DNA of 64,000 nucleotides from an uncultured bacterium (lineage in GTDB: Bacteria; Deinococcota; Deinococci; Deinococcales; Trueperaceae). The position numbers and the translations under genes were made by a program. The notes beneath the pieces are model-generated. The model did no database searches and was not told where the DNA came from. It saw only the letters and a program-made list of their open reading frames with translations. The stretch spans positions 43 to 64,042 of the forward strand of contig CAYNOS010000009.1 of assembly GCA_964398985.1 (NCBI GenBank). Direction: 5' to 3'. Within the stretch, counting starts at the first letter, position 1, and each line of letters begins with the position of its first letter. Of the stretch, positions 37,414-63,811 are shown piece after piece.

Positions 37414-38379
37414 TCACGCTCGACCAGCAGAGACGTCGCGCAGATGCTCGAGTACCGCGATCACCAACCTGGCGTCCTCGGCTCCTCGGTGCGCCTGGGC
37501 GGCACGAGCCACGCCTTCGATCACAGCGGCTCTCTGTAGTCCGACAGCCCCGCGCCCGACTCCTCGGCAGTGGGCGTACGCGTGCATGGCGCATTCGAAC
37601 GGCGGCAAGTCGTGAGGCGCCCCCCACGCCCGCGACGACTGAAGTACCAGTCGCTCGTCGAAGGCGGCGTTCCAGGCGAGCACCCTGCGTCCGTCGATGC
37701 ACTCGTGCAAGCGCGCGCTCACTTCCGGCCACCGGGGGGCGTCGCGCAGGTCTGCCGCGCTCAGGCGATTGACGCGGCTGGCAGCAGGATGCATCACTGC
37801 CCGCCTCGGTCTGACGAGCGTCTCCATGAGCAGCGTTCCGTCGGACGCTACCGCAGCGACCTCGACGACCTCGTCATGAGCTCCGAGACCGGTGGTCTCG
37901 GTGTCGACGACCACGAAGCCCTCGCGGAACAACTCGATGAGCCAGCGCCGCGGGGCGTCAAGCAGCGTGGTTCTGCGCGCGGTGGCGGGACGAACGACCA
38001 CGCCGAACGCGCGACCCTTTGGCTTCTCGTCTGGTGACGAGCGCAACGACGTTCGTCCCCGGCGCTCCTCAACTGGCACAGCGGCTGGTGTACTCCGACG
38101 CGGGAGCCTGGCCCAATCGTCGCCGCGCAGCTTGCGTGCTTCAGACGTGCTGTAGAGGGCGACCGCAGCCGGCCCCTCGGGGGCCACACTCTGCGGTTGC
38201 AGGTGCCGCAGCCACGCCACCGGCTCACCAAGGAGCACGAAGCCACCGGCACGAAGTTCGGGCTCGGTGCGAAGATCACGAGGGACTTGGCCAGGCTCCG
38301 TATAGACCGGCAGGCGATCGCCTTGCTCCACCGCAAGCAGTCTAGCTGCTGGCGAGTCACCTCCTGCGACCGCCGCCAC
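37414..38379 (-). CDS. DEDDh 3'-5' exonuclease (DnaQ-like) with an uncharacterised N-terminal extension
   Basis: Exo motifs VVVDTETTG, AWNAAFDE and HRGAEDA. The track ORF runs to 38853 but would overlap the CBS gene. GTG 38379, with AGGA 4 nt upstream, is my best guess for the start; later starts are possible. Confidence 0.65.
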   Translation of the reverse strand: MAAVAGGDSPAARLLAVEQGDRLPVYTEPGQVPRDLRTEPELRAGGFVLLGEPVAWLRHLQPQSVAPEGPAAVALYSTSEARKLRGDDWARLPRRSTPAAVPVEERRGRTSLRSSPDEKPKGRAFGVVVRPATARRTTLLDAPRRWLIELFREGFVVVDTETTGLGAHDEVVEVAAVASDGTLLMETLVRPRRAVMHPAASRVNRLSAADLRDAPRWPEVSARLHECIDGRRVLAWNAAFDERLVLQSSRAWGAPHDLPPFECAMHAYAHCRGVGRGAVGLQRAAVIEGVARAAQAHRGAEDARLVIAVLEHLRDVSAGRA

Positions 38380-38421
38380 CGAGGTCCTAATATGAGCCGA
38401 GTCGGCGAAGGAGGTGGCGCT

Positions 38422-38865
38422 ATGCAAGTTCGGCGTACCGTCAGGCAACTGCTGCAAGACAAGGGCTACAGCGTGTGGACGATCCATCCCGACGCCAGTG
38501 TGCTGGAAGCCCTGCAACTGATGGCGGACAAGAACATCGGATCTCTCGTAGTGATGGACGGTTCGGCGGTCGTCGGTGTCTTCACGGAACGAGACTACGC
38601 GCGTAAGGTCGTCTTGCTCGGCCGTGCTTCCAGGCAGTTGGCCGTGCGTGAGATCATGACGTCCGATCTCGTGACGGTCGGCGCCGACGCTTCGCTTGCC
38701 GACTGCATGCGCTTGATGACCGATCGCCGCGTGAGGCATCTGCCTGTCATGGAGAACGGTGCCCAGATCGGGCTCGTCTCCATAGGTGACGTGGTGAAGG
38801 CCGTGATGGCCGAGCAGGAGTTCCTCATCGAGCAGCTCCAGGGGTACATCCAAGGCGCGATCTGA
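38422..38865 (+). CDS. CBS-pair domain protein
   Basis: Two CBS motifs (GSLVVMDGSAVVGVFTERD; HLPVMENGAQIGLVSIGD). The ATG at 38422 is preceded by GAAGGAGG. Confidence 0.8.
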   Translation: MQVRRTVRQLLQDKGYSVWTIHPDASVLEALQLMADKNIGSLVVMDGSAVVGVFTERDYARKVVLLGRASRQLAVREIMTSDLVTVGADASLADCMRLMTDRRVRHLPVMENGAQIGLVSIGDVVKAVMAEQEFLIEQLQGYIQGAI

Positions 38866-38973
38866 CCATCAATCGATCGCACTTGTCTCGACCGTAAACC
38901 ACCCTTGCCCGACTTTCACAAGTTCCTACTTGGAAAAGCTGTGTGCTTCTGTTAGCCTAGTTGGTGATAGGCG

Positions 38974-43546: not shown

Positions 43547-44680
43547 CTAGTCCCAGTCGGTCACGCTAGCGGCCAGCTTCCGTCGGTCGGATCTTGCGTA
43601 ACGACGCGCCATGTCGAGCGTGGCGTGACGTAGGTGGTCCTGCACCAGGCCGAGGTCTCCCGTGCGCTGGTACAGGCGCGTTCCGGCACTGTGCCTGAGG
43701 GCGTGCACGCCCTTGAAAGTGACCTCGGCACGTACGCACACTTTGCGGAGCCGGTTGTAGACACCGAACTGACTGCGTAGCTCCAGCACCGCCTCGCCTC
43801 TGATCCCGCGCGCCTCCTGTGCGCGCCGGTACGTCAACAGCGCCGACGAGAGCTTGACGCTCATTACCACCGTTGCTGCCTTGCCGCCTTTGCCTCGCGC
43901 CACCAAGAGCTCGCCGGACCGGTGGTCGACATCACCCCAGGTGAGCGCCAGCATCTCGCTCACCCGCAGCCCCGCGTGCGATCCCAGGAGCAAGATCACG
44001 CGCTCTTGCTGGTCCCTGGTGGCGTCGAGGAGCCGGCTCAGTTCGGTCTCGCTGTAGATTCGGGCGCCGGGGTTGTCGGCGAGGGACGCGCGCGGCTTGC
44101 CTAGCTTGACGGCCCGGAATGGATCCGCTTCGGTGGCGCCTGCCCAAGCGAGGGCGTCGTACAGGACTCTAGCGGCAGCTACCCGGAGCGACACCGTGGC
44201 GCGGGCCAGAGGACCCCTCTTGGCTCGACGGCCCCGCCCCGAAGGCTTGGTCTCGATGCCAACTTCACCCGCGAGCATCCGCTGGACGTAGTCGCTACCG
44301 GCGTCACGTCCGGGCCGCAGCAGGTTCTCGCCGGACCAAGCCACCAGTAGCGCTTCGAGTCCGCGCCGATAGGCTCGTAGCGTGTGCCTGCTGGTGTCGA
44401 CTCCGCGTGTGCCGTTGAGCGTGAGATAGGCTTCCATCAGCTCCCAAAGGCTTTCGACGTCGCGCTCGGCAGCCGCCGTGACCGCGTAGCGGCGAAGCTG
44501 CTGATCGGACAGGCGGCGCAGCCGTTCGACGCGCTGCAGGCGCGTAGCCATCGATAGCTCGAGGGAGCTGACGGCAGCCGGCTCAAGGCCTGGCTCCAGT
44601 TCCGGCACCCCCGACGACGCCTGGGACGTCGCCTGAGACGTCTCCTGCCCAAGGATTTCCGCGTCTGGACGAGACTTCAC
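43547..44680 (-). mobile_element. Tyrosine-type site-specific recombinase/integrase
   Basis: Catalytic signature AGLRVSE ... HALRHSAGT ... LRHATLDMARRY, with a long N-terminal SAM-like domain. Confidence 0.85.
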
Positions 44681-48971: not shown

Positions 48972-49943
48972 GTGGTAGCGTCTGGAATGCCGCAGGCAAC
49001 GTCCGGTGAGGGTGAAACTGCGCTCCTCGAAGAAGGAAACTTGGAGGAGGCTCGCAGGCTACTCGAGAGCAGTGGGCGCTACCGGGTCCTGGAGAGGTTG
49101 GACAAGCCCACGACCTTCGCGCCCGGCATCGAGCCCACGCCTCCGCTGTTCACCGGGCTCTACCTGGACGTCGAGACCACAGGCATCGACAGCGCAGATC
49201 AGATCATCCAGCTCGGGTGTCTCGAGTTCGAGTACGACGCCGCCGGCAGAATCCATGCCGTCCTCGATGAGATCGACGAGTACGAGGATCCTGGCCGGCC
49301 GATCCCCCCAGAGATCACACGTCTCACGGGCATCACGGACGCGGATGTGGCGGGCAAGAGGATCGACGAAGACAGGGTCGGTTCCGCCTTGCAGCGCGCG
49401 AACCTCGTGATCGCGCACAACGCGTCCTTCGACAGGCCATTCGTCGAGCGGCGCCTGCCTGACTTCGAGAACGCGTACTGGGCCTGTTCGATCAGCGATG
49501 TCGACTGGCGCTCGGAGGGCTTCGCCAGCAGCAAGCTGGAGTGGCTGGCCTACCAGCACGGGTTCTTCTTCGAGGGACACAGGGCCACCATCGACTGCCT
49601 GGCGGGTGTGCGACTGCTTGCGCTCGAGTTGCCAAAGAGCGGACAGACCGCCATGGCCAAGCTTCGGTCCTGCGCCCAGAAGCGCACCGTGCGGCTCTGG
49701 GCGGTGGGCTCTTCGTTCGACAGCAAGGAGGCCCTGCGCCGACGTGGCTACCGTTGGAACGCAGAAGGCAAGGTGTGGTGGCGCGATCTGACGGCCGACG
49801 ACCACGAGGCCGAACTCGAGTGGTTGAGCGCCAACGCCTACGGCGGCCGCCGCCGGCCCCTCCCCTACTTCGGCTACGACGCCAAGCTCCGCTACTCCGC
49901 CCGCGTGCCGCTCGGGTACTCGCCCACCACGGACGTCCGCTAG
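48972..49943 (+). CDS. DEDDh 3'-5' exonuclease with a C-terminal Trp/Arg-rich extension
   Basis: Exo motifs LYLDVETTG, AHNASFDRPF and HRATIDC. C-terminal RRGYRWNAEGKVWWRDL. The start is likely a downstream Met (MPQATSG). Confidence 0.75.
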   Translation: MVASGMPQATSGEGETALLEEGNLEEARRLLESSGRYRVLERLDKPTTFAPGIEPTPPLFTGLYLDVETTGIDSADQIIQLGCLEFEYDAAGRIHAVLDEIDEYEDPGRPIPPEITRLTGITDADVAGKRIDEDRVGSALQRANLVIAHNASFDRPFVERRLPDFENAYWACSISDVDWRSEGFASSKLEWLAYQHGFFFEGHRATIDCLAGVRLLALELPKSGQTAMAKLRSCAQKRTVRLWAVGSSFDSKEALRRRGYRWNAEGKVWWRDLTADDHEAELEWLSANAYGGRRRPLPYFGYDAKLRYSARVPLGYSPTTDVR

Positions 49944-50024
49944 CTTCCTCGAACCCCCGCCATAGCGATATTGCGTGCGCTACTGCGCAAGCAGCGCCTC
50001 GAGAGGCCGTACCCCAGACGGCCG

Positions 50025-51767
50025 TCAGGTCTTCGCGAGGGCTCTCTTCAGCGATGCCAACGGCAGCGTATTGAGCACCTCGGAAGGCTCGATCCAGGCA
50101 CGCCGCGCCTGCGAGACCCCCAACTCCATGGCGGCGAGCCCGCGGACCGAATGAGCGTCGGTTCCGATGGCTATCACCGCCCCGGCCCGCCTTGCGATCT
50201 CGAGGTTCTCGACGCTCAGATCGAGGCGCTTCCCGGCGGCGTTGAGCTCGACGCACACTCGGTTGGCGACGCACGCCAGCAGCACCGCCTCGAGATCGAC
50301 ATCGATCGGATCCCGCGCACCGATCAACCGGGCCGTCGGATGGGCGAGCACGTTCACTTGTGGGTGCGAGACCGCGCGGATGATCCTCGCCGTCTGCTCC
50401 TCACGGCTGAGGTCCTGATGCGCATGTACGCTGACGATGACCAGGTCGAGGCGCTCCAACCACTCCTCCGGCAGATCGAGCGAGCCATCCTTCAGAATGT
50501 CCACCTCTAAACCCCTGAGCACGGTGATGCCCTCGACCTCGGCCGTCACTGCGTCGATCTCAAGCTGTTGCCGCTCGAGCTTGGCCGCGTCGAGCCCTCC
50601 CAGGAACGCTTGGCTGGCGCTGTGGTCGGTGATCGCGACGTACTCGTAACCCCTGGCTCGGGCAGCCAGCACCATGTCGCGGATCGAGTCGCGTCCATCC
50701 GACCAGGTGCTGTGCATGTGAAGGTCACCCCGGATGTCCGCGAGTTCGATCAGCGACGGGAGATTGCGCGCCGCCGCTGCTTCGATCTCACCTCGTCCCT
50801 CGCGCAGCTCGGGAGGGATGAATGCCAAGTCGAGCAGGCCGTAGATCTCCTCCTCGCTGGCACCGCCCAAGCGCCTGCCGCCCGCCCTCTCACGGCCCGG
50901 CGCACCACCCTCGAAGAGACCGTACTCGTTGAGGTGCCAGCCTCTCTCCAGTGCTCGCTGACGCAGGGCGACTCCGTGCTCCTTGGAACCCGTGAAGTAG
51001 AGCAGCGCAGCACCGAAGCTCTCCGGAGCGACGACGCGCAAGTCGACCTGCAGCCCGTTGCCGAGCACCACCGACGTCTTGGTCTCGCCGCTGCCCAGCA
51101 CCTCCCGCACGTCCGGCCAACTGGTCAGTGCCTCTGACACCGGCGCGCCGTCGAGCGTTGCCGCGATCAGGTCGATGTCACCGACGCTCTCACGCCGCCT
51201 GCGGTAGGAGCCGGCGACCTCCAGCCGCGCTACCGACGGGGCCGCCCGGAGCCGCGCCAGCAGCGGCTGAAGGACGCCATCGACCTCCGACAATCGCAGC
51301 CGCCCCACGTTGCGCCTGAAGCTCTCGATCCCCTTCAGGATCCGCTGCTCGGTCTTCTCTCCGAACCCGGCCAGTCCCGCGACCCGACCCGCGATCGCTG
51401 CCGTCTCGAGGTCATCGACCGTAGCCACGGCGAGCCCCTCCCACAGGGCCCGCGCCTGCTTCGCTCCCACGCCCTTGATCTGCGTGAGCTCGAGGAGGCC
51501 CTCAGGAACCCTCTCGCGCAACGCCGCCAGCTGGGGCAATGTCCCGGTCTCGACTAGTACCTCGAGCTTCCTGGCGATCTCCTTGCCGATGCCCTTGATG
51601 GCCGTCAGATCGTGGCCTGCCGCCAGCAGCACAGAAACCTGATCATCGAGAGCGCTGACGGTGCCGGCGGCGTTGCGGTAGGCCCGCACGCTGAACGGGT
51701 TCGCGCCGTCAAGCTCGGACAAGTCGGCCAGCAAGAGCAGGTGGCGCGCCAGTTCGGCGTTCGTCAC
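50025..51767 (-). CDS. polX: Family X DNA polymerase with PHP domain (PolX)
   Basis: N-terminal HhH/Pol-beta-like region ([10 protein letters not shown] ... [15 protein letters not shown]) and C-terminal PHP ([11 protein letters not shown]). The GTG start overlaps the ligA TGA as GTGA. Confidence 0.9.
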
Positions 51768-53797
51768 GACGCCTCCGCCCGCTGCGCGACCAGCGCGAGG
51801 TACTCCTCCTCGCTCAGGACCTCGACGCCCAGCTCCTCGGCTCTCGTCAGCTTCGATCCCGCCCCTGGTCCCGCGACGAGGTAACTCGTCTGTCGACTCA
51901 CGGAACCTGACGCCTTCCCGCCGAGTCCCCTCACTTGCTCCTCGGCCTCTCCCCTGCTCATGGTCTCGAGCGACCCGGTGAACACGAACGTCATGCCCTC
52001 GAAGGGCGCGGCGGCCCCCGCCCCCGGTTCCTGCCGCTCGGCACTCAGGGGACGCAGTCGACCAGCGAGGAGCCGATCGAAGGCGGCGGCGTTGGCCGGT
52101 TCGGCGAAGAAGCCGCTGATCTGTTCGGCCATCACCCTGCCGATGCCCTCAACCTGCATCAGCTCGTCGACGCTGGCGGCCCGAACACTCTCGATGTCGC
52201 CGAAGTGCGCAGCGAGGCTCCTGGCGACCGCACTGCCGACCTCCGGCACCCCGAGTGCGAACAGCAGCCGCGGCAGTTCCGGTTGCGACGAGGCGGCGAT
52301 GGCAGCCACCAGTTTGGCTGCCGACTTCTCTGCGAAGCCTTCGAGCCCAGCGACCTGCTCCTGAGTGAGGTCGAACAGATCGGCAGGCTCGCTGATCAAG
52401 CCGGTCTCGACCAGCTGCCTGACCGTGCGTTCGCCAAGGCCTTCTATGTCGAGGCCGCCGCGGCTCCCGAAGTGCGTCAGGCGTCCCACCAGTTGTGCAG
52501 GGCACCCGAAGCTGTTCGGGCACACGGTGTAGGGCCCGCGGCGAGCCAACGCGGTGCCGCAACTGGGGCACACGGTCGGCATGGCGAAAGGCGCCCCTCT
52601 GTGCGCCGCCGTCTCGATGACTTCGACCACCTGGGGAATGACGTCCCCGGCGCGCTCGACGCGCACCTCATCGCCCTCGCGAATGTCCTTGCGTTCGATG
52701 TCGTCGACGTTGTGCAGGTTGGCTCGACTGACAGTGACTCCGCCGATGTTGACGGGGCGCATCAGCGCAATGGGAGTCACCACCCCGGTGCGTCCGACGC
52801 TGGGGACGATCTTCAGTACCTGCGTGATCTCCTTGCGCGGCTTGAACTTGAGCGCATACGCCCACCGCGGATGGTGCGACGTGGTCCCCAGGCGCTCCCT
52901 GGCCGCGATGGCGTCCAGCTTGACCACGACGCCGTCGATCTCGTAAGGCAGTTCGTCGCGCTGTGCCTCGATCTTCCCGAAGTACTCGAGGATGCCTTCA
53001 ACGTCGGTCGTGGTCTCGTTGAGCCGGTTGACCGGCAGTCCCCAGTCGGCGAGAGCGCTCAGCAGTTCGCCCTGCGAGTCGAACTCCTCCCCGCCGGCCA
53101 GCAGGTCGTAGCAGTAGAGGCGCAGCGGCCGCATGGCCGTGAGCCGAACGTCCTGCTGCCTGATCGTTCCCGCCGCGGCGTTGCGTGGGTTCGCAAACGG
53201 CTCCTTGCCTTCGTTGAGCTGCTCGGCGTTGATGTTCTCGAAAGCGCTCAGCGGCAGGTAGATCTCACCGCGCAACGCGACCTCTTCTGGAACGGCACGG
53301 TGCGTGTCGTGAAGGCGCAGCGGGAGCGAGCGGATCGTCCGCACGCCGGCGGTGATGACCTCCCCCACCAACCCGTCACCGCGTGTCACGGCACGCTCCA
53401 GGACGCCGCGTGAGTAGACGAGTTCCACGCTCAGCCCATCGATCTTCGGCTCCAGAGAGTAGGCGACCGTCGTGCCCTCTCCCAGGCCACGACGCACCCG
53501 CCTGTCGAATGCGACAACGTCCTCTTCCCTGGCGCTCGAGTCGAGGCTCAGCATCGGCGCAGCATGGCGTGCCGTGACGACTCCCGAAGCGGGGGCACCG
53601 CCGACTCGTTGCGTGGGTGAGTCCGCGGTTACGAGCGCAGGAAAGCGGTCCTCGAGATCCCGAAGCTCGCGAACCAGTTCGTCATAGAGCTCGTCGGAGA
53701 CCTCGGGGTCGTCGAGAACGTGGTAGCGGTGATCATGGCGTCTGATCTCTCGCCGAAGCGTCTCCAAGCGAGCTGTGGCTGCCTTGAGATCGTCCAC
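51764..53797 (-). CDS. ligA: NAD-dependent DNA ligase
   Basis: Adenylation motif EPKIDGLS, zinc finger CPSCGTALARRGPYTVCPN, HhH repeats and a C-terminal BRCT (FVFTGSL). Confidence 0.95.
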   Translation of the reverse strand: MDDLKAATARLETLRREIRRHDHRYHVLDDPEVSDELYDELVRELRDLEDRFPALVTADSPTQRVGGAPASGVVTARHAAPMLSLDSSAREEDVVAFDRRVRRGLGEGTTVAYSLEPKIDGLSVELVYSRGVLERAVTRGDGLVGEVITAGVRTIRSLPLRLHDTHRAVPEEVALRGEIYLPLSAFENINAEQLNEGKEPFANPRNAAAGTIRQQDVRLTAMRPLRLYCYDLLAGGEEFDSQGELLSALADWGLPVNRLNETTTDVEGILEYFGKIEAQRDELPYEIDGVVVKLDAIAARERLGTTSHHPRWAYALKFKPRKEITQVLKIVPSVGRTGVVTPIALMRPVNIGGVTVSRANLHNVDDIERKDIREGDEVRVERAGDVIPQVVEVIETAAHRGAPFAMPTVCPSCGTALARRGPYTVCPNSFGCPAQLVGRLTHFGSRGGLDIEGLGERTVRQLVETGLISEPADLFDLTQEQVAGLEGFAEKSAAKLVAAIAASSQPELPRLLFALGVPEVGSAVARSLAAHFGDIESVRAASVDELMQVEGIGRVMAEQISGFFAEPANAAAFDRLLAGRLRPLSAERQEPGAGAAAPFEGMTFVFTGSLETMSRGEAEEQVRGLGGKASGSVSRQTSYLVAGPGAGSKLTRAEELGVEVLSEEEYLALVAQRAEAS

Positions 53798-53887
53798 CCG
53801 ACCATCCTAAGCATGCGAACACCAAAGAGCCTGACCGCCAGAGCGTTGGTGCCGACCGTCTGTCGAGGCTGGTGGGCGGTGACCCAG

Positions 53888-54229: not shown

Positions 54230-55741
54230 CTAGACAGTGTCCTTGAGCTCGGCGACGATCTGCTCAGCGATGTCCTTCGGGTACTCGGCCAAGAGGTCGA
54301 AGGTGGCGAGGTAGTTGGCGATGTCTTGCAGATGCGTCGGCAGCGACGCGAAGCCGTGGCTCAGCATCACTTCGAGGCGACTCGACTCGTAGAGCGGGCC
54401 CTGCCAACCGTCGGAGTTGAGTCGGTCGAGGGTGAAGCGGTGGAGCGTGGCGTTCATCAACGTATGAACCAGCTCGCGGTTCTCGTTGTTGAGCTCCTCC
54501 CATGCCGTCTGCACCCTCTGCCGGCGGCTATGGTGGAAGCTGTCGGCGAACGAGGTCGCGATGCTCCGCACCTCGTCCCGACTCAGGCCCTCGCGCTCTG
54601 CCTCTTCGGGTTCGCGAGGGGGTTCGACGCCCTGCTGCAGCAAGCTGTTCACGAAACCGGCGACATTGTAGATGGGTCTGCCGGCCGACTCGGACTTCGC
54701 CTGCAGTCTGCGAGCGTAAGCGACGATCTCAAGCACTCGCTGCGCCCCGTACCTCTGAATCGTGCGCTCGGCGTCCTGGGTCCAGCCGATCTCACGGAGT
54801 GCATCCAGCGCCTGTAGCTCCTTCAACAGCTGTTCCTTGTCGGCATCGCGCTGGACGCGGCGCGCCAGGCTCTCGGGCAGGCGCACGCGAGGCTGAAAGA
54901 CCTCGTTCTTGAAGATGCTGAAGGTCACGCGCTGGTACTTGCGGCCCACCTTCTTTGCAACGTAGTCGAAACCCAAGCTGGTGTAGCGGGAGAACTCGTC
55001 TTGAGCGCGATCGAGCACGTAGCGGAAATCCTTGAAGCGTTCGTACTTTCCGTCCAGGCCGAGGCGCAGTTTGAGGTCGTCGACGTCGAAGGTCAACTCG
55101 CTGCGTTCACCGGCGTAGCTGGCCGTATACAGCACTTCGAAGAGCCTCATGCTGTTGAAACTCTCGAAACTCAGCAGCTGCTCGGTCGGGATGATGCTGA
55201 AGTCGCGGCGCAGCTGGATCAGGTAGGGCTTGAGCTTGTCATGGATCTTCAGCTCGATGCACGCCATCTGGTCCCTGCTGTCGCGACCGTTCTCGTAACG
55301 CGCTTCCGAGACCCACTGAAACATCACCCAGTCGCCGTTCGGCTCCTTGACCTGCACAGTCTGTTCGAGCAACTCGCGCGCCGACTCCTCGATACGCGAG
55401 TAGATGCTCTTGCCCGTGATGTTGAACAGCTGGGAGTACTCCCATGCCGTGATCCGTATCGGCTCGATCGTAAGATCGTCCTTGGTGATGTCAGAGAGCG
55501 CAAGCACCAGCAACCGCTTGGTGAGGATCCCCATGTCTTGGCGACTCAAGGCCAGGGTGTTGGCCTGCGTAACGGCGAGCTTGGTCCCGCTACGACGCTC
55601 GCTGCCCCGCTTGGCCTGCCTCGGCCGCCCGCGACCACGACCGCCAGCACGCGGTCCCTTGCCCAGCGGCTCGATCAGCACCTCTCCCCTGCCCTCTTCG
55701 GCCCCACTTGCCGTCATCGCCCCGCCTCGCCCTCCGGACAC
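54230..55741 (-). CDS. Plasmid-type replication initiator (Rep_3/RepB-like)
   Basis: The core (VTQANTLALSRQDMGILTKRLLVLAL ... FESFNSMRLFEVL ... LRLGLDGKYERFKDFRYVL) resembles iteron-binding Rep_3 initiators. The gene has a GTG start and sits next to iterons and parAB. Confidence 0.75.
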   Translation of the reverse strand: MSGGRGGAMTASGAEEGRGEVLIEPLGKGPRAGGRGRGRPRQAKRGSERRSGTKLAVTQANTLALSRQDMGILTKRLLVLALSDITKDDLTIEPIRITAWEYSQLFNITGKSIYSRIEESARELLEQTVQVKEPNGDWVMFQWVSEARYENGRDSRDQMACIELKIHDKLKPYLIQLRRDFSIIPTEQLLSFESFNSMRLFEVLYTASYAGERSELTFDVDDLKLRLGLDGKYERFKDFRYVLDRAQDEFSRYTSLGFDYVAKKVGRKYQRVTFSIFKNEVFQPRVRLPESLARRVQRDADKEQLLKELQALDALREIGWTQDAERTIQRYGAQRVLEIVAYARRLQAKSESAGRPIYNVAGFVNSLLQQGVEPPREPEEAEREGLSRDEVRSIATSFADSFHHSRRQRVQTAWEELNNENRELVHTLMNATLHRFTLDRLNSDGWQGPLYESSRLEVMLSHGFASLPTHLQDIANYLATFDLLAEYPKDIAEQIVAELKDTV

Positions 55742-55758
55742 GCTCTCAGCCCGAAGCG

Positions 55759-55788
55759 ACTGTACCCGTGCAGGGGAATCCAGGTCAA
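55759..55788 (-). promoter_or_regulatory. Predicted rep promoter
   Basis: Minus strand reads TTGACC (55783-55788), an 18-nt spacer, then TACAGT (55759-55764). A partial iteron (55792-55807) abuts the -35. Confidence 0.4.
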
Positions 55789-55830
55789 CTATTCCCCTTT
55801 TTCTCCCACTATGAGGGGGTGGCGCGTTAA

Positions 55831-55961
55831 GTCCCCCCGGTTCCCCGCCTGAGTCCCCCTGCGTTCCCGCTTGGTCCCCCTCCCTTCCCAGCCAGTCCCC
55901 GCTCCTTTCCCGACTCGGTTCCCCATCTCACCCCCTACGGTCCCTCTACTTCCCCAGCTTC
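55831..55961 (+). repeat. Six tandem 21-23 bp iterons (GTCCCCnnnn(G)TTCCCnnnnnn), i.e. 12 half-units phased at ~10.8 bp
   Basis: Unit starts are 55831, 55853, 55874, 55895, 55918 and 55940. T-CCC cores recur every 10-12 bp. Confidence 0.8.
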
Positions 55962-55995
55962 CTTCCTCCAAGCGCGTGCTGGACGGCCTTCGCAT

Positions 55996-56046
55996 GCTCT
56001 CTAAAGTAGAATGGAATAGAACTGAAGAATAGACAGCAATCACTTG
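55996..56046. other. AT-rich segment, candidate DNA-unwinding element of the origin
   Basis: ctctaaagtagaatggaatagaactgaagaatagacagcaatcac. It is flanked by iterons on both sides, and the GAATAGA motif is repeated within it. Confidence 0.55.
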
Positions 56047-56090
56047 CTGTTGACTGGAGATCAAGGTGAGCCGTCCTCTGACGCCAGCGA

Positions 56091-56142
56091 GTACCCTGGC
56101 TTTCCCGGCTACCTACCCCGGTCCCCTCTCTTCCCCACTTCC
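56091..56142 (+). repeat. Two further iteron copies, same orientation
   Basis: gtaccctggctttcccggctac (56091-56112) and gtcccctctcttccccacttcc (56121-56142). The second closely matches the unit at 55940-55961. Confidence 0.7.
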
Positions 56143-56308
56143 TCCTCCAGGAGCGCGCATCCAAGTGCTGAACGCACCTTGGGTCTACGGCGCGCTGATC
56201 AGCGACAGGCCGTTCAGGCCGCAGGATCGCCACCACGCAGGGCACCTGCTCAAGTGGGAAATCACTGGGACGGTCGCTGGACCACACCACACGCTCGCCC
56301 TGTGGCCT

Positions 56309-56366
56309 CGCAATAACGTTATGGCTCGGAGCCGGGTCTCCGTCGGCGCCGCAATAACGCTATGGC
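56309..56366 (+). repeat. Two copies of a 17-bp element containing a 16-bp near-palindrome GCAATAACG(T/C)TATGGC; candidate parS or par operator
   Basis: 56309-56325 and 56350-56366 match at 16 of 17 positions and sit 41 bp apart, about 125-180 bp upstream of parA. Confidence 0.5.
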
Positions 56367-56489
56367 ACGAAGTCGACGCAGCCTGAGCGGACGCGAATGC
56401 TCGCTGCATCCGGGCTACAATCGCCGCATGACGGTGCTTGGCCGGCGTCCGGCCTGTTGCGAACGTGCCGGAGCAGGGCGGCGGCAACC

Positions 56490-57278
56490 ATGCAGGTGCT
56501 GACGTTCTTCAACCACGCCGGCGGTGTTGCGAAAACCAGCTCCGTAAGGGATCTCGGGTATGTGTTCGCCGAGGGCGGCAAGCGCGTTCTCCTGATCGAT
56601 CTCGATCCGCAGGCCAACCTGACCCGTTGGCTCGGAATCTCAGGAGCCGTGGGCCTCGAACAGACGGTCTACCCAGCGGTGATGAGTGAAGCGACAGAAC
56701 TGGAGGCCGCCTCCCTGCCATTGCCCGTGCGAACTCATGGCATGGACCTCGTTCCTGCAACGCTGAAGTTGGCGGCGCTCGAGCGCGAACTGGTCGGCCA
56801 GTTCATGGGGGTCGTGCGATTGCGCGAGGCGCTGCGGCGCCTTGAGTCGTACGACCTAGTGCTCATCGATCCGCCCCCGAGCCTGGGTCAGCTGTCCGCG
56901 TTGGCGGTGGTGGCGGCCGATCGCGTAGTGGTGCCGCTACCGACGAACAGGAAGGGCATAGACGGCCTGGCAGCCGTTCTCGGCATGGTGAAGGAGTATC
57001 GGAGGGCCGCCCCCGGTCTCGACGTGGCACTCTTCATCCTGACGCAGCACGACCGGCGGACACGCCATGACCGCGAGAGCCTGGCGGCGATTCGCAGGCA
57101 GTTGTCGGCGGTGGCGCCGGTGTCCACGCCGTTGCACAGCCGGCCGGCTTACTACTCCGACGCCCAGATCGCCGGTGCTCCGGTGCCGGTGTTCGCACCG
57201 GGAAGCGAGGCGGACTTGGAGATACGGCAAGTGGCACGCGAGTTGAGCGCTGCGATGGAGGGAACCACACGTGGCTAG
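56490..57278 (+). CDS. parA: ParA-family partition ATPase (deviant Walker A lacking the signature lysine)
   Basis: MQVLTFFNHAGGVAKTSS ... LLIDLDPQANLT ... VLIDPPPSLG. I prefer the ATG at 56490 over the track start at 56397. Confidence 0.85.
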   Translation: MQVLTFFNHAGGVAKTSSVRDLGYVFAEGGKRVLLIDLDPQANLTRWLGISGAVGLEQTVYPAVMSEATELEAASLPLPVRTHGMDLVPATLKLAALERELVGQFMGVVRLREALRRLESYDLVLIDPPPSLGQLSALAVVAADRVVVPLPTNRKGIDGLAAVLGMVKEYRRAAPGLDVALFILTQHDRRTRHDRESLAAIRRQLSAVAPVSTPLHSRPAYYSDAQIAGAPVPVFAPGSEADLEIRQVARELSAAMEGTTRG

Positions 57279-58227
57279 GCGAAAGAGCGACATCGATCGA
57301 GCGGCAGTCTTCGAAGCGATCCTCGGAGATCTCGGCGAAGTGAGCGCGGGGGGTCTTAGCGGCCCAGCGACCATTCCGTTGCAGGCGATTAGCTTCAACC
57401 CGCGTCAGCCGCGCAAGCATGTGGGCGAGGATGGGCTGGAGGAGCTGGCGGCATCGATTCGCGAGCGCGGGGTTCTTGAGCCTGTGATAGTGCGTCCGGC
57501 GGCAAGCGGCTATGAGTTGGTGGCTGGCGAGAGGCGGACCCGCGCTGCGGCTCTGGCAGGGCTCACCGAAGTCCCCGCGATCGTCATCGAGGTCGACGAT
57601 CGCGGCGCGCTCGAGATCGCGATGATCGAGAACCTGCAGCGGGAGGATCTCAATGCGGTGGAGGAGACCGAAGCCCTGCTCGGTCTGTTAGAGATTTCAC
57701 TGGATCGCAGCAGAGACGAAGTCGTGGCTCTGCTGCAGGCTCTCTACGGCGAGGAGCGAGGTCGGCCCGTATCTGGCAGGTTCAGCGAGCAGGAGCGGAG
57801 CGAGACTCACGCGCTGTTCTCGCGGCTGGGGCGCTTCAGCCTCAGCTCCTTCGTGAGCAATAGGCTGCCGATCCTCGAGTTCCCTGCGCCGCTGCTCGAG
57901 GCCGTGCGGGGAGGGAAGCTGGCGTTCACGAAGGCCCAGGCGATCGCGCGGGTCGAGGATGGAGGCGACCGCCAGAGGCTACTGCGCGCGGCCATCAGCG
58001 ACGATCTGTCCCTCAGTCAGATCAGGCGACGGATCACGGAGCTGAGGCGTGGCGGGAGCGGCGAGAGCCCTGGCCACGCTGTGCCGGCCTCAGTTGCGAC
58101 CCAGACGTTGGCATCGAACACCAAGAGGCTGTTGAACCGCCGGAAGCTGGCGGGACTGTCGGTGGAGCGCCTGGACAGGGTCAATGAGCTGCTGCGCGAG
58201 TTGCGAGAGGTCCTGCAAGGCGACTGA
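57271..58227 (+). CDS. parB: ParB/Spo0J-family partition protein
   Basis: PRQPRK..., GVLEPVIVRP, the arginine patch VAGERRTRAA, and an HTH region. It overlaps parA by 8 nt. Confidence 0.88.
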   Translation: MARRKSDIDRAAVFEAILGDLGEVSAGGLSGPATIPLQAISFNPRQPRKHVGEDGLEELAASIRERGVLEPVIVRPAASGYELVAGERRTRAAALAGLTEVPAIVIEVDDRGALEIAMIENLQREDLNAVEETEALLGLLEISLDRSRDEVVALLQALYGEERGRPVSGRFSEQERSETHALFSRLGRFSLSSFVSNRLPILEFPAPLLEAVRGGKLAFTKAQAIARVEDGGDRQRLLRAAISDDLSLSQIRRRITELRRGGSGESPGHAVPASVATQTLASNTKRLLNRRKLAGLSVERLDRVNELLRELREVLQGD

Positions 58228-58875: not shown

Positions 58876-59044
58876 GGGAAATGAACGGTACCCCATGGGC
58901 GCCAGGACACGGGTTCCCGCCCACCTGGTGGAAGTGGGGATTCCTGGGAACTATGTCCGGCGATGTTGGCGCGCCCGGCCGTCAGCGTGGTTGATGAAGC
59001 GGGAAAGCAGGGGTACTCAACCACAAGTGGGGAACTAGGGGGAC
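58876..59044 (-). repeat. Distal cluster of iteron-like copies, mostly inverted relative to the origin array
   Basis: The reverse complement of 59029-59044 is GTCCCCCTAGTTCCCC (compare 55853-55868 gtccccctgcgttccc). The reverse complement of 59001-59016 is GTACCCCTGCTTTCCC (compare 56091-56106). Further copies lie at 58936-58951, 58911-58920 and 58876-58894. Confidence 0.6.
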
Positions 59045-59092: not shown

Positions 59093-62000
59093 TCACCCGC
59101 CGTAGTGATAGCCGCGCACCGTGATCGGCATGGGTAGAGCCGCCAAGGTAGTGGCTTTCAGCGCCGGCTGATGCCCTGTGTCTTCGACGGTTGCGTCGAC
59201 GACTAAGAACGACGCATCCCTGAGCAGGCTGCGGTGGCTGGCCCACAGGTCGGGGGAGATGATGAGCTGCGCTCGGTGGGGGCCGTCTTCGATGACGAAG
59301 AAGGCGAAACCTTTGGCGGTAGGCGGCTTCTGGCGCGCCACCACCATGCCTGCAGTGCGAAGCAGAGTCTTGCGGGCGCTGCGGCGGGCGCGCCAAAGAG
59401 GCACGCACCCGAGCTCGCGGAGCTGATCTCTCACCAAGTCGGCTGGGTGCACCTCGAGTGTGCTGAGGCGCGTCGTTTCGAAGTCCCATACGAAGCGGTC
59501 CGCCACCGGTAGGGGAGCCAGCGAGGGCGTTTCGGGGACGCCTACCAGAAGAGTGGCCGCGCCGGCGACGTGGGCATTGCAGAGCACACCGACCCGGTAG
59601 AGCGCCTCGCGTCGAGGTTGCACGTCGTCGAAGGCGCCAGCACGCACCACGGCCTCGAGTGCCTCGCGGGGCACAGCGAGACGTTGGTAGAGGTCGTCGA
59701 CGTCTCGGTACGGTCCGTGGCGTAGCCGTTCGGTGAGGATCTCGGTGGACACGCTATGCGACACGTCCTTGATCTGGCTCAATGGAGGCCGGATCGCTTT
59801 TACCCGCCCGGTCGTCTCCGAGATGGCGAGTTCACAGCGGTAGTGCGCGCCGCTACGGTTGATGTCGAATGGGAGGAAGGGAACGCCCCACGAGCGCGCC
59901 TCATGGCGCTTGGTGAGTTGCGGCCACATGCCTGGCTCCTCGGACAGGATGGCGGCCATGTACTCGGCCGGGTAGTGAACCCGCAACCAACCAGAGGCGT
60001 AGGCGTGCTGCGCGAAGGCCCATGCGTGCGACTCGGCGAAGCCGAAGCCTTGGTAGTTCTTCACGGCATCGAAGACGGCCGTGGCCTCTTCGCGACTGGC
60101 GCCGACATGGCGCATGCCTCCCGCGATGAAGGCGTCGCGGTATGGCTCGATGTCGGAGACGGAATCTCCCCAGTCGGAGACCATCTTGCGGAAGCGGGAC
60201 GCCTCGGTCCAGGTCATGCCGGCGAAGTGCACGGCGATGCGCAGCACATCATCCTGGAAGAGCAGGACGCCGTAGGTCTTGGACAGCAGCTTCTCCAGGC
60301 TGGGGTGCCAGTAGCTGATGGGTTCCTTGCCCTGACGCCGTCGGAGGTAAGGGTGCACGGTGCCGGACTGGATCGGGCCGGGACGGATCAGCGCCACTTG
60401 ATGGGCGAGGTCTCTGAGGTTTCGAGGCCGCATGGCGCGGCTCGTTTGCATCTGGCTGGGGCTTTCGACCTGGAACAGCCCCAGGGTCGCGCCCTCTGCG
60501 ATCAGGTCCCAGACGCGCTCGTCATCTGGCAGCGTGAAGAGGTCCAGCCAGGTGCCTTCGATACGAAACACTTCCTCGCGCGCGCGTTCGAGAGCGGCCA
60601 GCATGCGCAGGCCGAGTAGGTCGAGCTTGACCAGCCCCATGGCCTCGGCGTCGTCCTTGTCGAGTTGGAGCAGACGGATGCCACCGGTCGAACGCTCCAG
60701 CGGCGAGTAGTCGGTGAGCTCGCCGCGTACCATCACCACGCCGCCGGAGTGCGGAGCCAGGTGCCGCGCGTGCTTGCTCTCCATGCCGGTCAACAGATCG
60801 AGCAGGACGGTGAGCGCAGGCGCATCGCCGCACACCTCGCGCAGCGCTGCGGTCGCCAGATGTGCCTGAGGTGGACGGCGGCCGCGGAAATCGCGCCCTA
60901 ACGCCCGGCTCAGCCGGTCTCTGAGCTCCTTGGGTAGGCCCAGTGCCCGACCCATGTCTTGCAGTGCCAGAGGGAGGCGGTAGGTGATCTTGTTGCAGAC
61001 CATCGCCTCGGTGGTGGCGCCGAAGTGCTCCTCGACCCAAGCCAGGAGGTCGTCGCGGCGGGCCGACGAGACGTCGATGTCGATGTCGGGCATCGCTTTC
61101 ATGCCGGTGTGCAAGAAGCGCTCGAAGAGCAGGCCGTTGGCGATGGGGTCGGCCTTGGTGACGCCGAGCAGGTAGCAGACCACGCTGGCCGCTGCCGATC
61201 CGCGGCCCGTGGCGAGGATGCCACTGCGCCGGCAGTGGTCGGTGACCTCGGCCGCTACCAGGAAGAAGTCGGCGAGATCGTAATCACGGATGACAGCGAG
61301 CTCCTCGCGGAGGCGTGCTTCTGCCTCGGTGCGCAGGCCAAGGTCCGGATAACAAGTGGCGAGGGCGGTGTGGCAACGACCTTCCAGATGCTGTTGTGGG
61401 GTCAGCCCTGACGGCACGCGTGCGCGAGGGGGTGTGACGCGCTCCGGCAGCAGTTCGAAGCTGGCTTGTTCCGCCACCCAGGCGGCGTTGAGCCTGGCTT
61501 CGGGGAAGGGGAGACGGTCGGCAACGTCGACCGGCGCCGGCAGATGCTGACAGGCGTTCTGGGGTCGGCGCGGATGCGGCTGTTGCACGCTGATGCCCAG
61601 CCGCGCACAGACCAGCGCGTCGTAGAGCCGGTAGTCCGAGGCCTGCGCGTATCTAACCTCGGGGGCGGCGACTACCGGCAACGACTGGCTCTGCGCTAGT
61701 TGCCTGATGACCCGCGCTCGCCGTGAGTCCCAACGGTAACGATCGTGGAAGAGCTGCAAGTAGAAGCGCTCGCCGAACGCCTCCTTGAGCCGGGCGAGCA
61801 GACGCTCCAGCTCGGTAATGCGCCGCTCGGCCAAGAGCTTCGCCACCACTCCCTCGCGCGGGCCACTCAAAAGGATGACGTCCTCGGCGTGCTCGAGGAG
61901 CGTCTCGAGGTCGACATCACGCTCGTCGCGCGCATGCAGGCGCGTCAGGAGCCTACAGATGGTGGCGTAGCCGCTGCGTGATGCTGCCAGTAGGACGAAC

Positions 62001-62248
62001 GGATAGCTCGCCCCGTTGCTGATGACCGGCACCGTCGCGCCGATGAGGGCCTTGATGCCGTTCTCGCGCGCCGCTTGGAAGAGCTCGACGCCGCCGGTGA
62101 TGTTGGCATCGTCGGTAAGGGCGATGTGGTTGTAGCCGAGTTCCGCAGCGCGCTTCACCAGCGTGGTGGGGCTCGCGGTCCCCGCGCCGAAACTGAAGTA
62201 GGAGTGGACGTTCAGCAGCGCTGTCAGTCGCTCATCTTGGCTAGCCAC
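59093..62248 (-). CDS. dnaE2: Error-prone DNA polymerase (DnaE2-type Pol III alpha paralogue)
   Basis: PHP N-terminus LNVHSYFSFGAGTASP, about 1050 aa, immediately downstream of imuB. I prefer the GTG at 62248, which has AGGGGA 6 nt upstream, over the track start at 62356. Confidence 0.88.
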   Translation of the reverse strand: MASQDERLTALLNVHSYFSFGAGTASPTTLVKRAAELGYNHIALTDDANITGGVELFQAARENGIKALIGATVPVISNGASYPFVLLAASRSGYATICRLLTRLHARDERDVDLETLLEHAEDVILLSGPREGVVAKLLAERRITELERLLARLKEAFGERFYLQLFHDRYRWDSRRARVIRQLAQSQSLPVVAAPEVRYAQASDYRLYDALVCARLGISVQQPHPRRPQNACQHLPAPVDVADRLPFPEARLNAAWVAEQASFELLPERVTPPRARVPSGLTPQQHLEGRCHTALATCYPDLGLRTEAEARLREELAVIRDYDLADFFLVAAEVTDHCRRSGILATGRGSAAASVVCYLLGVTKADPIANGLLFERFLHTGMKAMPDIDIDVSSARRDDLLAWVEEHFGATTEAMVCNKITYRLPLALQDMGRALGLPKELRDRLSRALGRDFRGRRPPQAHLATAALREVCGDAPALTVLLDLLTGMESKHARHLAPHSGGVVMVRGELTDYSPLERSTGGIRLLQLDKDDAEAMGLVKLDLLGLRMLAALERAREEVFRIEGTWLDLFTLPDDERVWDLIAEGATLGLFQVESPSQMQTSRAMRPRNLRDLAHQVALIRPGPIQSGTVHPYLRRRQGKEPISYWHPSLEKLLSKTYGVLLFQDDVLRIAVHFAGMTWTEASRFRKMVSDWGDSVSDIEPYRDAFIAGGMRHVGASREEATAVFDAVKNYQGFGFAESHAWAFAQHAYASGWLRVHYPAEYMAAILSEEPGMWPQLTKRHEARSWGVPFLPFDINRSGAHYRCELAISETTGRVKAIRPPLSQIKDVSHSVSTEILTERLRHGPYRDVDDLYQRLAVPREALEAVVRAGAFDDVQPRREALYRVGVLCNAHVAGAATLLVGVPETPSLAPLPVADRFVWDFETTRLSTLEVHPADLVRDQLRELGCVPLWRARRSARKTLLRTAGMVVARQKPPTAKGFAFFVIEDGPHRAQLIISPDLWASHRSLLRDASFLVVDATVEDTGHQPALKATTLAALPMPITVRGYHYGG

Positions 62249-62373
62249 CAAGCATCCCCTTCCCGGAACAGCTCCGCCCTGACGCCACCTTCGATCTCGA
62301 CAAGGTAGTAGTCCCGATTGATCTCGCCATCCCACCAATGCCCGTCGTAGCGCCACTGGTCCACGATCCGCAC
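62224..62373 (-). CDS. Small Trp-rich ORF between imuB and dnaE2 (function unknown)
   Basis: (V)RIVDQWRYDGHWWDGEINRDYYLVEIEGGVRAELFREGDAWWLAKMSD. Third-position GC is about 78 percent by hand count. The frame stays open up to 62508, overlapping the imuB tail, and the ORF overlaps the dnaE2 start by 25 nt. Confidence 0.5.
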   Translation of the reverse strand: MRIVDQWRYDGHWWDGEINRDYYLVEIEGGVRAELFREGDAWWLAKMSD

Positions 62374-62377
62374 GACG

Positions 62378-63811
62378 CTACGTGGAAGGAGCTGCGAGCG
62401 GCGACGTTGGCGTCGAGACTGGCCCTGAGCCAGGGGATCCCAACTCACGGTGGCGGGTGTCTGTTGCGGTGTCAATGTCACCGCCGCGGGGGTCAGTAGT
62501 TGTCGCATGAGGCCTCGTTACGGGAAGCTGGGTGGTGTCGGCGTCAGGCGTGGGCGGTTCGAACAGCGGGACCGCGGTGACGGCAGCCCGAAGCGAGCTC
62601 GGGACGGCGGCCCGGGACGCTCGCGTGCCGGGCCGCGGCGGCCGCCGGATCGCGATGGCGGGGTGCGTTGCTCCGGGTTCGAGCGAGTCGCTGTAAGCTT
62701 GCCAGCTCCACGCGAGGTCGTCGGCTTGGGTGTGGGGATCGCGCCATTCCAAGCGCCTGGGAGCGTGAGGGAAGCGCTCGAAGGTCGCTTCCAGTGCTCT
62801 TTGCCTGCGCTCCCGTTGCGGCCACAGGCCGTCTTGTTGGGCTGCGCGCTGTGGGTCAGAGAGTTCGATCGTCAGCCTCTCGATGTGCTGACCGGCGACG
62901 CCGCTGTCACGTAGCGCGAACAGAGCCTGCTGACGGATGTGCCGCGCTTGAGCCAAGGGCCGTTTGCTGAGCCGGCTGGCGCGAAGCTGGCCGACACCTA
63001 GCGCGGTGGTGAGCGTCAGGCGGTGCGAAGCGCGACCGTCGAGTGCGCGCTCCAGCTCCGACGAGAGCTTGTCCAGCGCAGGGATCAGTTGCCGTGGCTC
63101 CCGAACAGGTCGAGAGAAGGCCAGCGAACGCGCGAGGGTCTCGGGCAGGCTGAACGGTCTGAGGACGTCCCGCCTGGGGCCATGCAAGTAAGCGATGAGC
63201 GCCGACCCCTCTTCGCCCAGGTAGGAACTCAACTGCGGCTTGGTCCAGGCAGCAAGGTCAGCCGCAGTGTTGATGCCCAACCACTCGAGGCGCGTGAGGT
63301 TGCGAGCGCTCAACGCTACGCCTTTGAGGAAGCGTAAAGGTAGGCGGGCAAGGAAGGCGGTTTCGGCGGCTGTGGTGGGTGCTATCTTCCTGCAGGCGCC
63401 AGGGCTGGTAGCCAATGCGGCGAGCTCGGCCAGCTCACAGTTGCGAGCCACGCCGACGCTGACATCGAAACGGTGAGCTAGTTGAACGGCTTCGGTGGCC
63501 GCGACCTCGACGAACGCCAGTCCGCGGCGGGCGCCCTCCACCCAGGGGGTAATGGCGTGGAGTTCCCCCAGCAACTCCCGCCAACCGTGTTCAAGGTCGG
63601 GTTCGGGGATGGACACGACCCGCAGCCCCTCGACCCGCAAGCGCGCACCGTCCAGCAGCATGCCGGCGCTGATGCCATGGCGGCGGGCCAGGGCGTTGGC
63701 GTGCAGCACACGCCCGTCTTCGACGTGTACCAGCGGCGTGCGCGACAAGACCGGGTCGGCGCGCCGCGCTAGGTAGAGCGGCAGGGGAGTGAAGCAGAGC
63801 GCGGCGATCAT
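62378..63811 (-). CDS. imuB: ImuB/ImuY-like Y-family polymerase homologue (mutagenesis cassette)
   Basis: N-terminus MIAALCFTPLPLYLA is typical of ImuB. Y-family little-finger-like middle region, low-complexity C-terminal tail, and a position upstream of dnaE2. Confidence 0.8.
   Translation of the reverse strand: MIAALCFTPLPLYLARRADPVLSRTPLVHVEDGRVLHANALARRHGISAGMLLDGARLRVEGLRVVSIPEPDLEHGWRELLGELHAITPWVEGARRGLAFVEVAATEAVQLAHRFDVSVGVARNCELAELAALATSPGACRKIAPTTAAETAFLARLPLRFLKGVALSARNLTRLEWLGINTAADLAAWTKPQLSSYLGEEGSALIAYLHGPRRDVLRPFSLPETLARSLAFSRPVREPRQLIPALDKLSSELERALDGRASHRLTLTTALGVGQLRASRLSKRPLAQARHIRQQALFALRDSGVAGQHIERLTIELSDPQRAAQQDGLWPQRERRQRALEATFERFPHAPRRLEWRDPHTQADDLAWSWQAYSDSLEPGATHPAIAIRRPPRPGTRASRAAVPSSLRAAVTAVPLFEPPTPDADTTQLPVTRPHATTTDPRGGDIDTATDTRHRELGSPGSGPVSTPTSPLAAPST

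Follow-up and report, generated by a model that had tools for sequence, protein, structure and literature searches.

The rep-parA locus

The stretch analysed here, 64,000 bp of contig CAYNOS010000009.1 from an uncultured member of the Trueperaceae (hereafter the window), carries near 56 kb a gene for a Rep_3-family replication initiator (rep) and, divergent from it, the partition genes parA and parB. The spacer between rep and parA contains an array of short direct repeats and is a candidate replication origin of the iteron type; this spacer, its initiator and the outlying copies of its repeats are the subject of this report. The features of the locus are as follows (coordinates are those of the window).

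54230..55741, minus strand: rep, Rep_3-family initiator gene, 503 amino acids (aa), or 495 aa if the start is the ATG at 55717
55759..55788, minus strand: predicted rep promoter; -35 TTGACC at 55788-55783, 18-nt spacer, -10 TACAGT at 55764-55759
55773..55807, unstranded: candidate operator; inverted T-type half-sites GGGGAA at 55773-55778 and TTCCCC at 55792-55797 around the -35, with an extra TCCC at 55804
55831..55961, plus strand: main iteron array A; six ~22-bp units starting at 55831, 55853, 55874, 55895, 55919 and 55940; period 21.7 bp
55975..55985, unstranded: quasi-palindrome CGTGCTGGACG
55996..56046, unstranded: AT-rich stretch, presumed DNA unwinding element; strand-asymmetric, with the plus strand 67% purine
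56033..56050, unstranded: short inverted repeat ACAGCAA-tcac-TTGCTGT at the far edge of the AT-rich stretch
56091..56142, plus strand: auxiliary iteron cluster B; GTACCCtggctTTCCCG at 56091 (to 56112) and GTCCCCtctcTTCCCC at 56121, oriented as in array A
56256..56271, minus strand: single inverted iteron GTCCCAGTGATTTCCC
56310-56325 and 56351-56366, unstranded: 16-bp palindrome upstream of parA, candidate parS or par operator
56490-57278, plus strand: parA, divergent from rep; Pfam AAA_31/CbiA, NCBIfam ParA
57271-58227, plus strand: parB; Pfam ParB_N and HTH_ParB, NCBIfam ParB
58876..59044, minus strand: distal iteron cluster C in the bcp-dnaE2 spacer; units at 59044-59029, 59016-59001, 58951-58936 and 58891-58876, inverted relative to array A

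The main iteron array

Eleven [GT]TCCC cores begin at 55831, 55841, 55853, 55864, 55874, 55885, 55895, 55907, 55919, 55940 and 55950, and a twelfth unit of the array, near 55930, is degenerate (CACCCCC). The cores lie 10-12 bp apart, which amounts to 10.8 bp per half-unit (119 bp over 11 intervals), and in the unit of array A a G-type half-site (GTCCC) is followed ~10.5 bp on by a T-type half-site (TTCCC). The first-pass annotation of this DNA had listed the same cores as a phased series of T-CCC motifs, its positions being offset by +1, and had paired them into six iterons of ~22 bp; the pairing and the period stand, and the fifth iteron was found to begin with TTCCC rather than GTCCC. Tandem Repeats Finder reports a 22-bp period at 55830-55912, and a 22-bp period is given by a repeat finder as well. 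The array is confirmed as real and far above chance. Its density of TCCC (12 per 130 bp) is the maximum of the window, where the mean is 0.48 and the standard deviation 0.84, and the composite pattern GTCCC-N4-7-TTCCC occurs nine times in 64 kb against 0.61 expected, a count reached by none of 100 shuffles; seven of the nine matches lie in the rep-parA spacer. Two of the window's only four canonical G-quadruplex motifs also lie inside the array (55855-55900 and 55921-55955), with their G-runs on the minus strand.

A pitch of ~22 bp, or two helical turns, that sets all sites on one face of the helix is standard among iterons, the sites of RK2, F, P1, R6K and pPS10 being 17-22 bp long, and displacement of iterons by half a turn abolishes cooperativity (PMC4980987). 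Because this spacing is the norm (PMC4980987), the one-turn phasing that had been singled out as unusual shrinks to the likeness of the two half-sites to one another, which is mildly unusual. Near-copy halves in direct orientation within each iteron are uncommon, and they call for no new mechanism.

Related loci and their iterons

Rep proteins 64-99% identical to that of the window are encoded in 50 genomes, all of them Genome Taxonomy Database (GTDB) species representatives and nearly all assigned to Trueperaceae, Deinococci or Deinococcota or consisting of unclassified metagenome-assembled genomes. The gene order dnaE2-bcp-parB-parA-[ori]-rep-ligA-polX is conserved across the 50 loci, and every locus with an intact spacer carries an array of the same half-sites. 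Pooled distances between half-sites peak at 11, 22, 33, 44, 55, 65-66, 77, 87-88, 98 and 109 bp; over ~47 loci the main array is usually 108-120 bp long with a mean half-unit of 10.85 bp, and a conserved box of the AT-rich element follows it at a median distance of 52 bp. Of 485 steps between neighbouring half-sites, 383 switch between G-type and T-type, with spacings of 10-11 bp from G to T and 11-12 bp from T to G. Since the half-sites alternate with fixed spacings, the repeating unit is a 22-bp iteron whose two halves are related to each other yet distinct; its consensus in the family is cGGTCCCcCnnctTTCCCaCTncG. This anatomy and its conservation through the family are direct observations. 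One of the matching sequences, a 1.5-kb contig (L016, CAZTPJ010000187.1) 99% identical to the rep/iteron region of the window, is found in a genome labelled Phycisphaeraceae, which is probably a binning error.

More distant relatives suggest that the repeats follow the initiator. A Rep with 53% identity retains the GGGAA/GGGAC motif. Directly upstream of a rep gene whose product is only 34% identical, on a 13-kb contig, there are six 22-bp iterons of another sequence, GGGGAGAnnTTTAGGG, in the same position and preceded by AT-rich DNA (L053, 1182-1310, and also L054). As judged from these comparisons, the change of iterons with the diverged Rep is the co-variation expected of cognate iterons. 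The 34%-identical locus also has a ParA with a fused helix-turn-helix domain, and a DDE transposase gene lies nearby.

The Rep initiator

The rep gene itself is as first annotated, but its GTG start at 55741 is doubtful; the ATG at 55717 is a possible alternative, because a database protein of identical sequence has 495 aa. The predicted protein has a disordered Arg/Gly-rich N-terminal tail, a WH1 domain (residues 57-204), a WH2 domain (220-276) and an all-helical C-terminal extension of ~220 aa. Its membership in the Rep_3 family is plain from Pfam, where it scores 84.7 bits for Rep3_N (cut-off 22.4) and 41.9 bits for Rep3_C (cut-off 21.1). Among sequences in the PDB the best match is RepE (E 6e-7), and the WH1 domain of pPS10 RepA is also among the best solved relatives. 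An AlphaFold2 model made from 48 homologues (predicted local distance difference test score, pLDDT, 81.7) superimposes on RepE54-iteron complexes with template modelling (TM) scores of 0.70-0.73 and on the pi-iteron complex with 0.66, and fits the RepE dimer more poorly (0.48-0.56). By sequence and by predicted fold, then, Rep is a genuine Rep_3 initiator with both winged-helix domains.

Classical Rep_3 initiators have no counterpart of the C-terminal domain found in the Trueperaceae protein. It spans residues ~285-503 (window 54230-54890) and is confidently predicted and conserved. No significant Pfam match to it was found at E<=10 and no fold match in the PDB; DUF3243 was considered and set aside as sub-threshold (E 0.012, 16.4 bits against a cut-off of 27). 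A megablast search of PLSDB with window positions 54230-57300 gave no match, and at the protein level the plasmid Rep proteins found in that database are all <32% identical to this one, none of them from Deinococcus or Thermus.

The AT-rich element and its flanking boxes

The AT-rich element lies ~40 bp past the last iteron of array A. Positions 55996-56045 are 64% AT, the 99.96th percentile of 50-bp stretches in the window (mean 34%, standard deviation 5.7%), and positions 56002-56051, at 66%, tie for the most AT-rich 50 bp of the 64 kb; the AT-rich core that the first-pass annotation had placed beside the array is thus borne out (64-66% AT over 55996-56051, a tied window maximum). The element contains the boxes (C)ATTAAAGGGAATG...TGAAGAA, which are conserved across the related loci, the form typical of the family being CATTAAAGGGAATG...TGAAGAA.

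Between the array and the AT-rich element lies a quasi-palindrome whose family form is CGTCCAGCACG and which is inverted in the window. Of 47 loci, 26 have it, with up to two mismatches, at a fixed offset ~27 bp ahead of the AT-rich box (background 0.16 per 80 bp). It is a candidate host-factor site and could stand in for a DnaA box. At the far edge of the element, both arms of the short inverted repeat ACAGCAA/TTGCTGT are kept in most loci, 3-33 nt apart, and several loci have GC-rich perfect palindromes inserted between them. A covarying hairpin was considered here and rejected (RNAalifold gives five pairs with compensatory changes in one and a covariation term of -0.03), as was a minus-strand terminator, for which the resemblance is there and an upstream promoter is lacking. 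Given the weak covariation, the arms are best regarded as a conserved inverted repeat and not as a proven hairpin. Rfam gave no match at the gathering threshold in the whole window and none at E<=1 in the spacer; there is no known copy-control RNA.

The predicted rep promoter and a candidate operator

The predicted rep promoter is the sole sigma-70-like site in 55650-56550 (0.1 expected), and the GTCAA core of its -35 region is kept in relatives. A partial iteron copy at 55792-55807 had been described as abutting the -35, and it does lie next to the TTGACC at 55788-55783; the first-pass annotation did not include the inverted half-site GGGGAA on the other side, with which it forms the arrangement GGGGAA-N13-TTCCCC that brackets the -35. 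The strict pattern GGGAA-N5-9-GTYAA-N1-6-TYCCC is found in the same place in 28 of 47 related loci. Inverted half-sites at a rep promoter are the classic layout for autorepression by Rep dimers (PMC4857107), and the half-sites around this -35 look like such a Rep-dimer operator. This reuse of the T-type half-site points to the rep product as the protein that binds the array.

Auxiliary and inverted iterons

The two additional same-orientation iterons reported at 56091-56112 and 56121-56142 (cluster B) are also borne out by the sequence. Of 47 loci, 45 have iterons in this orientation beyond the AT-rich box towards par (median three), and 37 have par-side inverted iterons like the single one in the window, which was absent from the first-pass annotation. 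Also absent from it was cluster C, which lies ~3 kb from the origin and whose sites are dispersed 28-65 bp apart. A relaxed iteron pattern, expected 2.6 +/- 1.6 times in the window, matches 17 times; four of the matches lie in the 170 bp of cluster C, all on the minus strand. Where the spacer downstream of bcp could be evaluated (>~80 bp of it included), an inverted cluster is found in 11 of 15 loci, and it is absent from one subclade. These distal clusters are mostly of the GTACC variant. A division into GTCCC (origin) and GTACC (control) iteron classes was considered and dropped, as the two variants are nearly balanced in the main arrays (100 vs 94). Cluster C may serve in copy control or looping in the manner of incA.

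Partition genes and a candidate parS

The 16-bp palindrome that occurs twice upstream of parA has further copies at 49959-49974 (one mismatch) and 53837-53852 (three mismatches); its six strand-specific matches in the window compare with 0.26 expected. The consensus across the related loci is the perfect palindrome GCCATAACGTTATGGC, which is found in 42 of 50 loci, lies upstream of parA and is scattered around the locus. The canonical parS sequence TGTTTCACGTGAAACA does not occur in the window, and GCCATAACGTTATGGC is probably the parS of this replicon.

Function of the rep-parA spacer

Very probably, vegetative replication of an iteron-type (Rep_3, theta-mode) replicon starts in the rep-parA spacer and is controlled there. 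The first-pass annotation had arrived at an iteron origin, and that interpretation is supported by the Rep_3 initiator, the tandem 22-bp iterons, the adjacent AT-rich element, the half-site operator and their conservation in the family. The order AT-rich element, iterons, operator and rep is the paradigm for such origins (PMC4980987, PMC4857107). In pPS10 and F the iterons are bound by Rep monomers, with cooperativity and in phase with the helix, the operator is bound by dimers, and Rep molecules sitting on iterons handcuff (PMC4980987, PMC4857107).

By analogy with RepE, RepA and pi, one Rep monomer would occupy each 22-bp iteron; WH2 would contact the T-type half (TTCCCC) and WH1, one helical turn away, the G-type half (GTCCC/GTACC). 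WH2 is placed on the TTCCCC half because that half makes up the operator. Six monomers could then line one face of the helix, bind cooperatively and melt the adjoining AT-rich element. RepE holds the T-rich strand of its unwound element (PMC10602881), and Rep may likewise hold the pyrimidine-rich minus strand of the melted element, as in a loop-back model. The host helicase would be loaded next, apparently without a DnaA box. Rep dimers on the inverted TTCCCC half-sites around the -35 would repress rep, and cluster B, the inverted iteron and cluster C, which together bracket the parAB-bcp operon, could limit copy number as extra sinks for Rep or as partners in handcuffing and looping. Segregation would proceed through the separate palindrome GCCATAACGTTATGGC, bound by ParB.

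Several points weigh against an origin that works in this way. No DnaA box (TTATCCACA, at most one mismatch) is present in the spacer, and the single match in the 64 kb is at 26267; such a box is usual in the origins of classical iteron plasmids, but it is not universal. The operator in its strict form is limited to the 28 of 47 relatives mentioned above, and it is by analogy that the half-sites are assigned to WH1 and WH2. GC skew reverses its sign close to 56 kb; the cumulative minimum there is only a local one, the skew is also positive over 4-40 kb, and the window shows no clean long-range origin signature. To the left of the origin ~83% of coding bases are on the minus strand, co-directional with a leftward fork (tallied over open reading frames (ORFs) of >=230 aa, taking the Pfam-supported one where ORFs overlap), whereas to the right imuB and dnaE2 point towards the origin. 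GC skew and strand bias together give the origin weak support.

Three other explanations of the array deserve consideration. Rep might bind the repeats for autoregulation and copy control only, as at an inc locus, while synthesis starts elsewhere, perhaps at an oriC beyond the window that depends on DnaA. This would accord with the missing DnaA box and long-range skew minimum, with the large, chromosome-like size of the replicon (>285 kb in a relative) and with the presence of several iteron clusters, as at the inc loci of P1 and F. However, a stretch tied for the most AT-rich of the window adjoins the array, its boxes and its fixed spacing from the array recur in ~47 loci, the order of AT-rich element, iterons, operator and rep is that of the functional pPS10 and F origins, and a basic replicon usually has rep and parAB diverging from such a spacer; we therefore consider a purely regulatory array unlikely. 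That the array is mainly a ParB-bound centromere akin to parS seems somewhat less likely still. It does lie in the spacer upstream of parAB, and in the same phylum 18-bp repeats upstream of parAB bind ParB and DnaA and give plasmid maintenance (PMC7671480). Yet the array is unrelated in sequence to those D. radiodurans repeats, its T-type half-site recurs in inverted form around the rep -35, and in the distant relative, where the par genes sit across rep, the repeats change with Rep; moreover, the distinct and perfectly palindromic 16-mer that is conserved by parA and scattered around the locus has the usual pattern of parS.

Finally, the C-tract periodicity could be structural or regulatory DNA that acts independently of Rep, either as a minus-strand G-quadruplex or as phased bending that tunes the divergent promoters. 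Half of the canonical G-quadruplex motifs of the window fall within the array, with G-runs on the minus strand, and G-quadruplex regulation has reportedly been described in Deinococcus. What is conserved, however, is not the G-runs but the alternation of half-sites at 10-11 and 11-12 bp; many half-sites are GTACC, which breaks the G-run, and isolated and inverted copies occur kilobases off. We regard a Rep-independent role as very unlikely indeed.

Comparison with known systems

An iteron origin of this kind resembles pPS10 oriV/RepA and mini-F ori2/RepE most closely. They share an initiator with WH1 and WH2 domains (RepE being the best solved match by sequence and fold) and the succession of AT-rich element, tandem iterons of ~22-bp pitch, an operator that shares an iteron half over the rep promoter, and rep; the extra iterons outside the minimal origin recall incC of F. 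The Trueperaceae locus differs from both in having six iterons with near-copy direct halves (GTCCC / TTCCC) and no DnaA box, and in belonging to a replicon that exceeds 285 kb in a relative rather than to a small or medium plasmid. Further initiator sites that lie kilobases from the array and would be natural looping or handcuffing partners are also known from P1 (oriR/incA) and R6K (gamma/alpha/beta), but cluster C lies beyond parAB-bcp and not directly after rep, is dispersed rather than tandem, and is missing in one subclade.

In the same phylum, cisII and cisMP of D. radiodurans likewise consist of direct repeats and AT-rich DNA upstream of parAB on a secondary replicon, in a species that is radiation-resistant too (PMC7671480). 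Their 18-bp repeats, TCCACAAAGTGCCACAGG and CCGCAAAGGTGTCGCTA, are unrelated in sequence to those described here, and unlike them the Trueperaceae locus has a Rep_3 gene of its own, a candidate operator and, apart from the iterons, a palindrome like parS. A search of the D. radiodurans secondary replicons for RepC/RctB homologues found none, and the binders tested there were DnaA and ParB (PMC7671480). Chromosome 2 of V. cholerae is the paradigm for a domesticated, iteron-controlled plasmid-type origin, which lies by parAB on a large, vertically inherited replicon and has several classes and locations of initiator sites, RctB acting with iteron-like 11/12-mers and 39-mers. RctB is not a Rep_3 protein, however, and the 39-mers, crtS and Dam methylation have no counterpart seen in the Trueperaceae locus.

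The origin design is thus textbook and ordinary, with no new mechanism. Four features really set the locus apart from classical systems, namely the C-terminal domain of Rep, the lack of a DnaA box, the distal inverted cluster around parAB-bcp and the replicon that hosts the origin, and the interest of the locus lies in its conservation across the family and in the possibility of a chromid rather than in the design of the origin. The Trueperaceae are a radiation-resistant and poorly studied family of extremophiles, and a literature search found no paper joining Truepera with iterons. The sequence of the locus yields a candidate for every part of a basic replicon: rep with its operator, the six iterons, the unwinding element, the auxiliary iterons, a putative parS, and parAB. 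Shuttle vectors for Truepera and its relatives could start from this set. It also puts a name to a candidate Rep, whereas in the sister genus Deinococcus the search for RepC/RctB found none (PMC7671480).

The host replicon and its gene content

In one relative the locus occupies 147-169 kb of a 285-kb contig, the longest that carries it, and so lies mid-contig; other contigs that carry it are up to 215 kb and 157 kb long. The contigs of 215-285 kb are CAWCUY010000018.1 and JBIQLT010000004.1. The only closed Trueperaceae genome, that of T. radiovictrix RQ-24, is a single replicon of 3.26 Mb (PMC3072082). None of the 108 matches found for Rep comes from a contig of that size, and therefore the type strain of T. 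radiovictrix probably lacks Rep; the best 120 matches to LigA include no cluster from a 3.26-Mb contig. Trueperaceae LigA homologues often share contigs with Rep.

The window has repair and replication genes grouped around the origin, namely an mgsA/rarA-like gene, polA, two genes for DnaQ-like exonucleases, polX, ligA, and imuB (Y-family-like, 477 aa) in a cassette with the error-prone polymerase gene dnaE2. It has ordinary metabolic genes too, and no tRNA or rRNA genes were found in it. The repair and replication genes fall in the following stretches.

22555-24786: repair/replication genes
30572-33343: repair/replication genes
37414-38853: repair/replication genes
48972-53797: repair/replication genes
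59093-63811: repair/replication genes

Two marks of a chromid are present, plasmid-type replication and partition (Rep_3, iterons and parAB) and vertical conservation across the family with stable synteny (the 50 species representatives). The replicon fits a chromid or a megaplasmid and is compatible with a chromosome too; it may be a chromid, and the term plasmid-type describes the mechanism only. A more far-reaching proposal, which we consider possible but rather doubtful, is that the spacer is the origin of a vertically inherited chromid of most Trueperaceae, on which a repair and replication toolkit (ligA, polX, polA, mgsA, imuB-dnaE2 and the DnaQ-like exonucleases) would sit within ~35 kb of the origin, where dosage is highest; the C-terminal domain of Rep would replace the DnaA-box/DnaA step in helicase recruitment, and the iteron clusters around parABS would couple copy control and segregation by Rep looping. 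If there is indeed a chromid, a domesticated iteron origin would have been kept across a whole family in a second instance, independent of that in Vibrio, and its repair genes would be clustered at the origin.

A tyrosine recombinase gene lies at 43547-44680, other AT-rich spots occur at 38913, 40587 and 45831, and long ORFs are sparse over 38.9-46 kb. This region may be an integrated element, and it could account for the irregular skew to the left of the origin.

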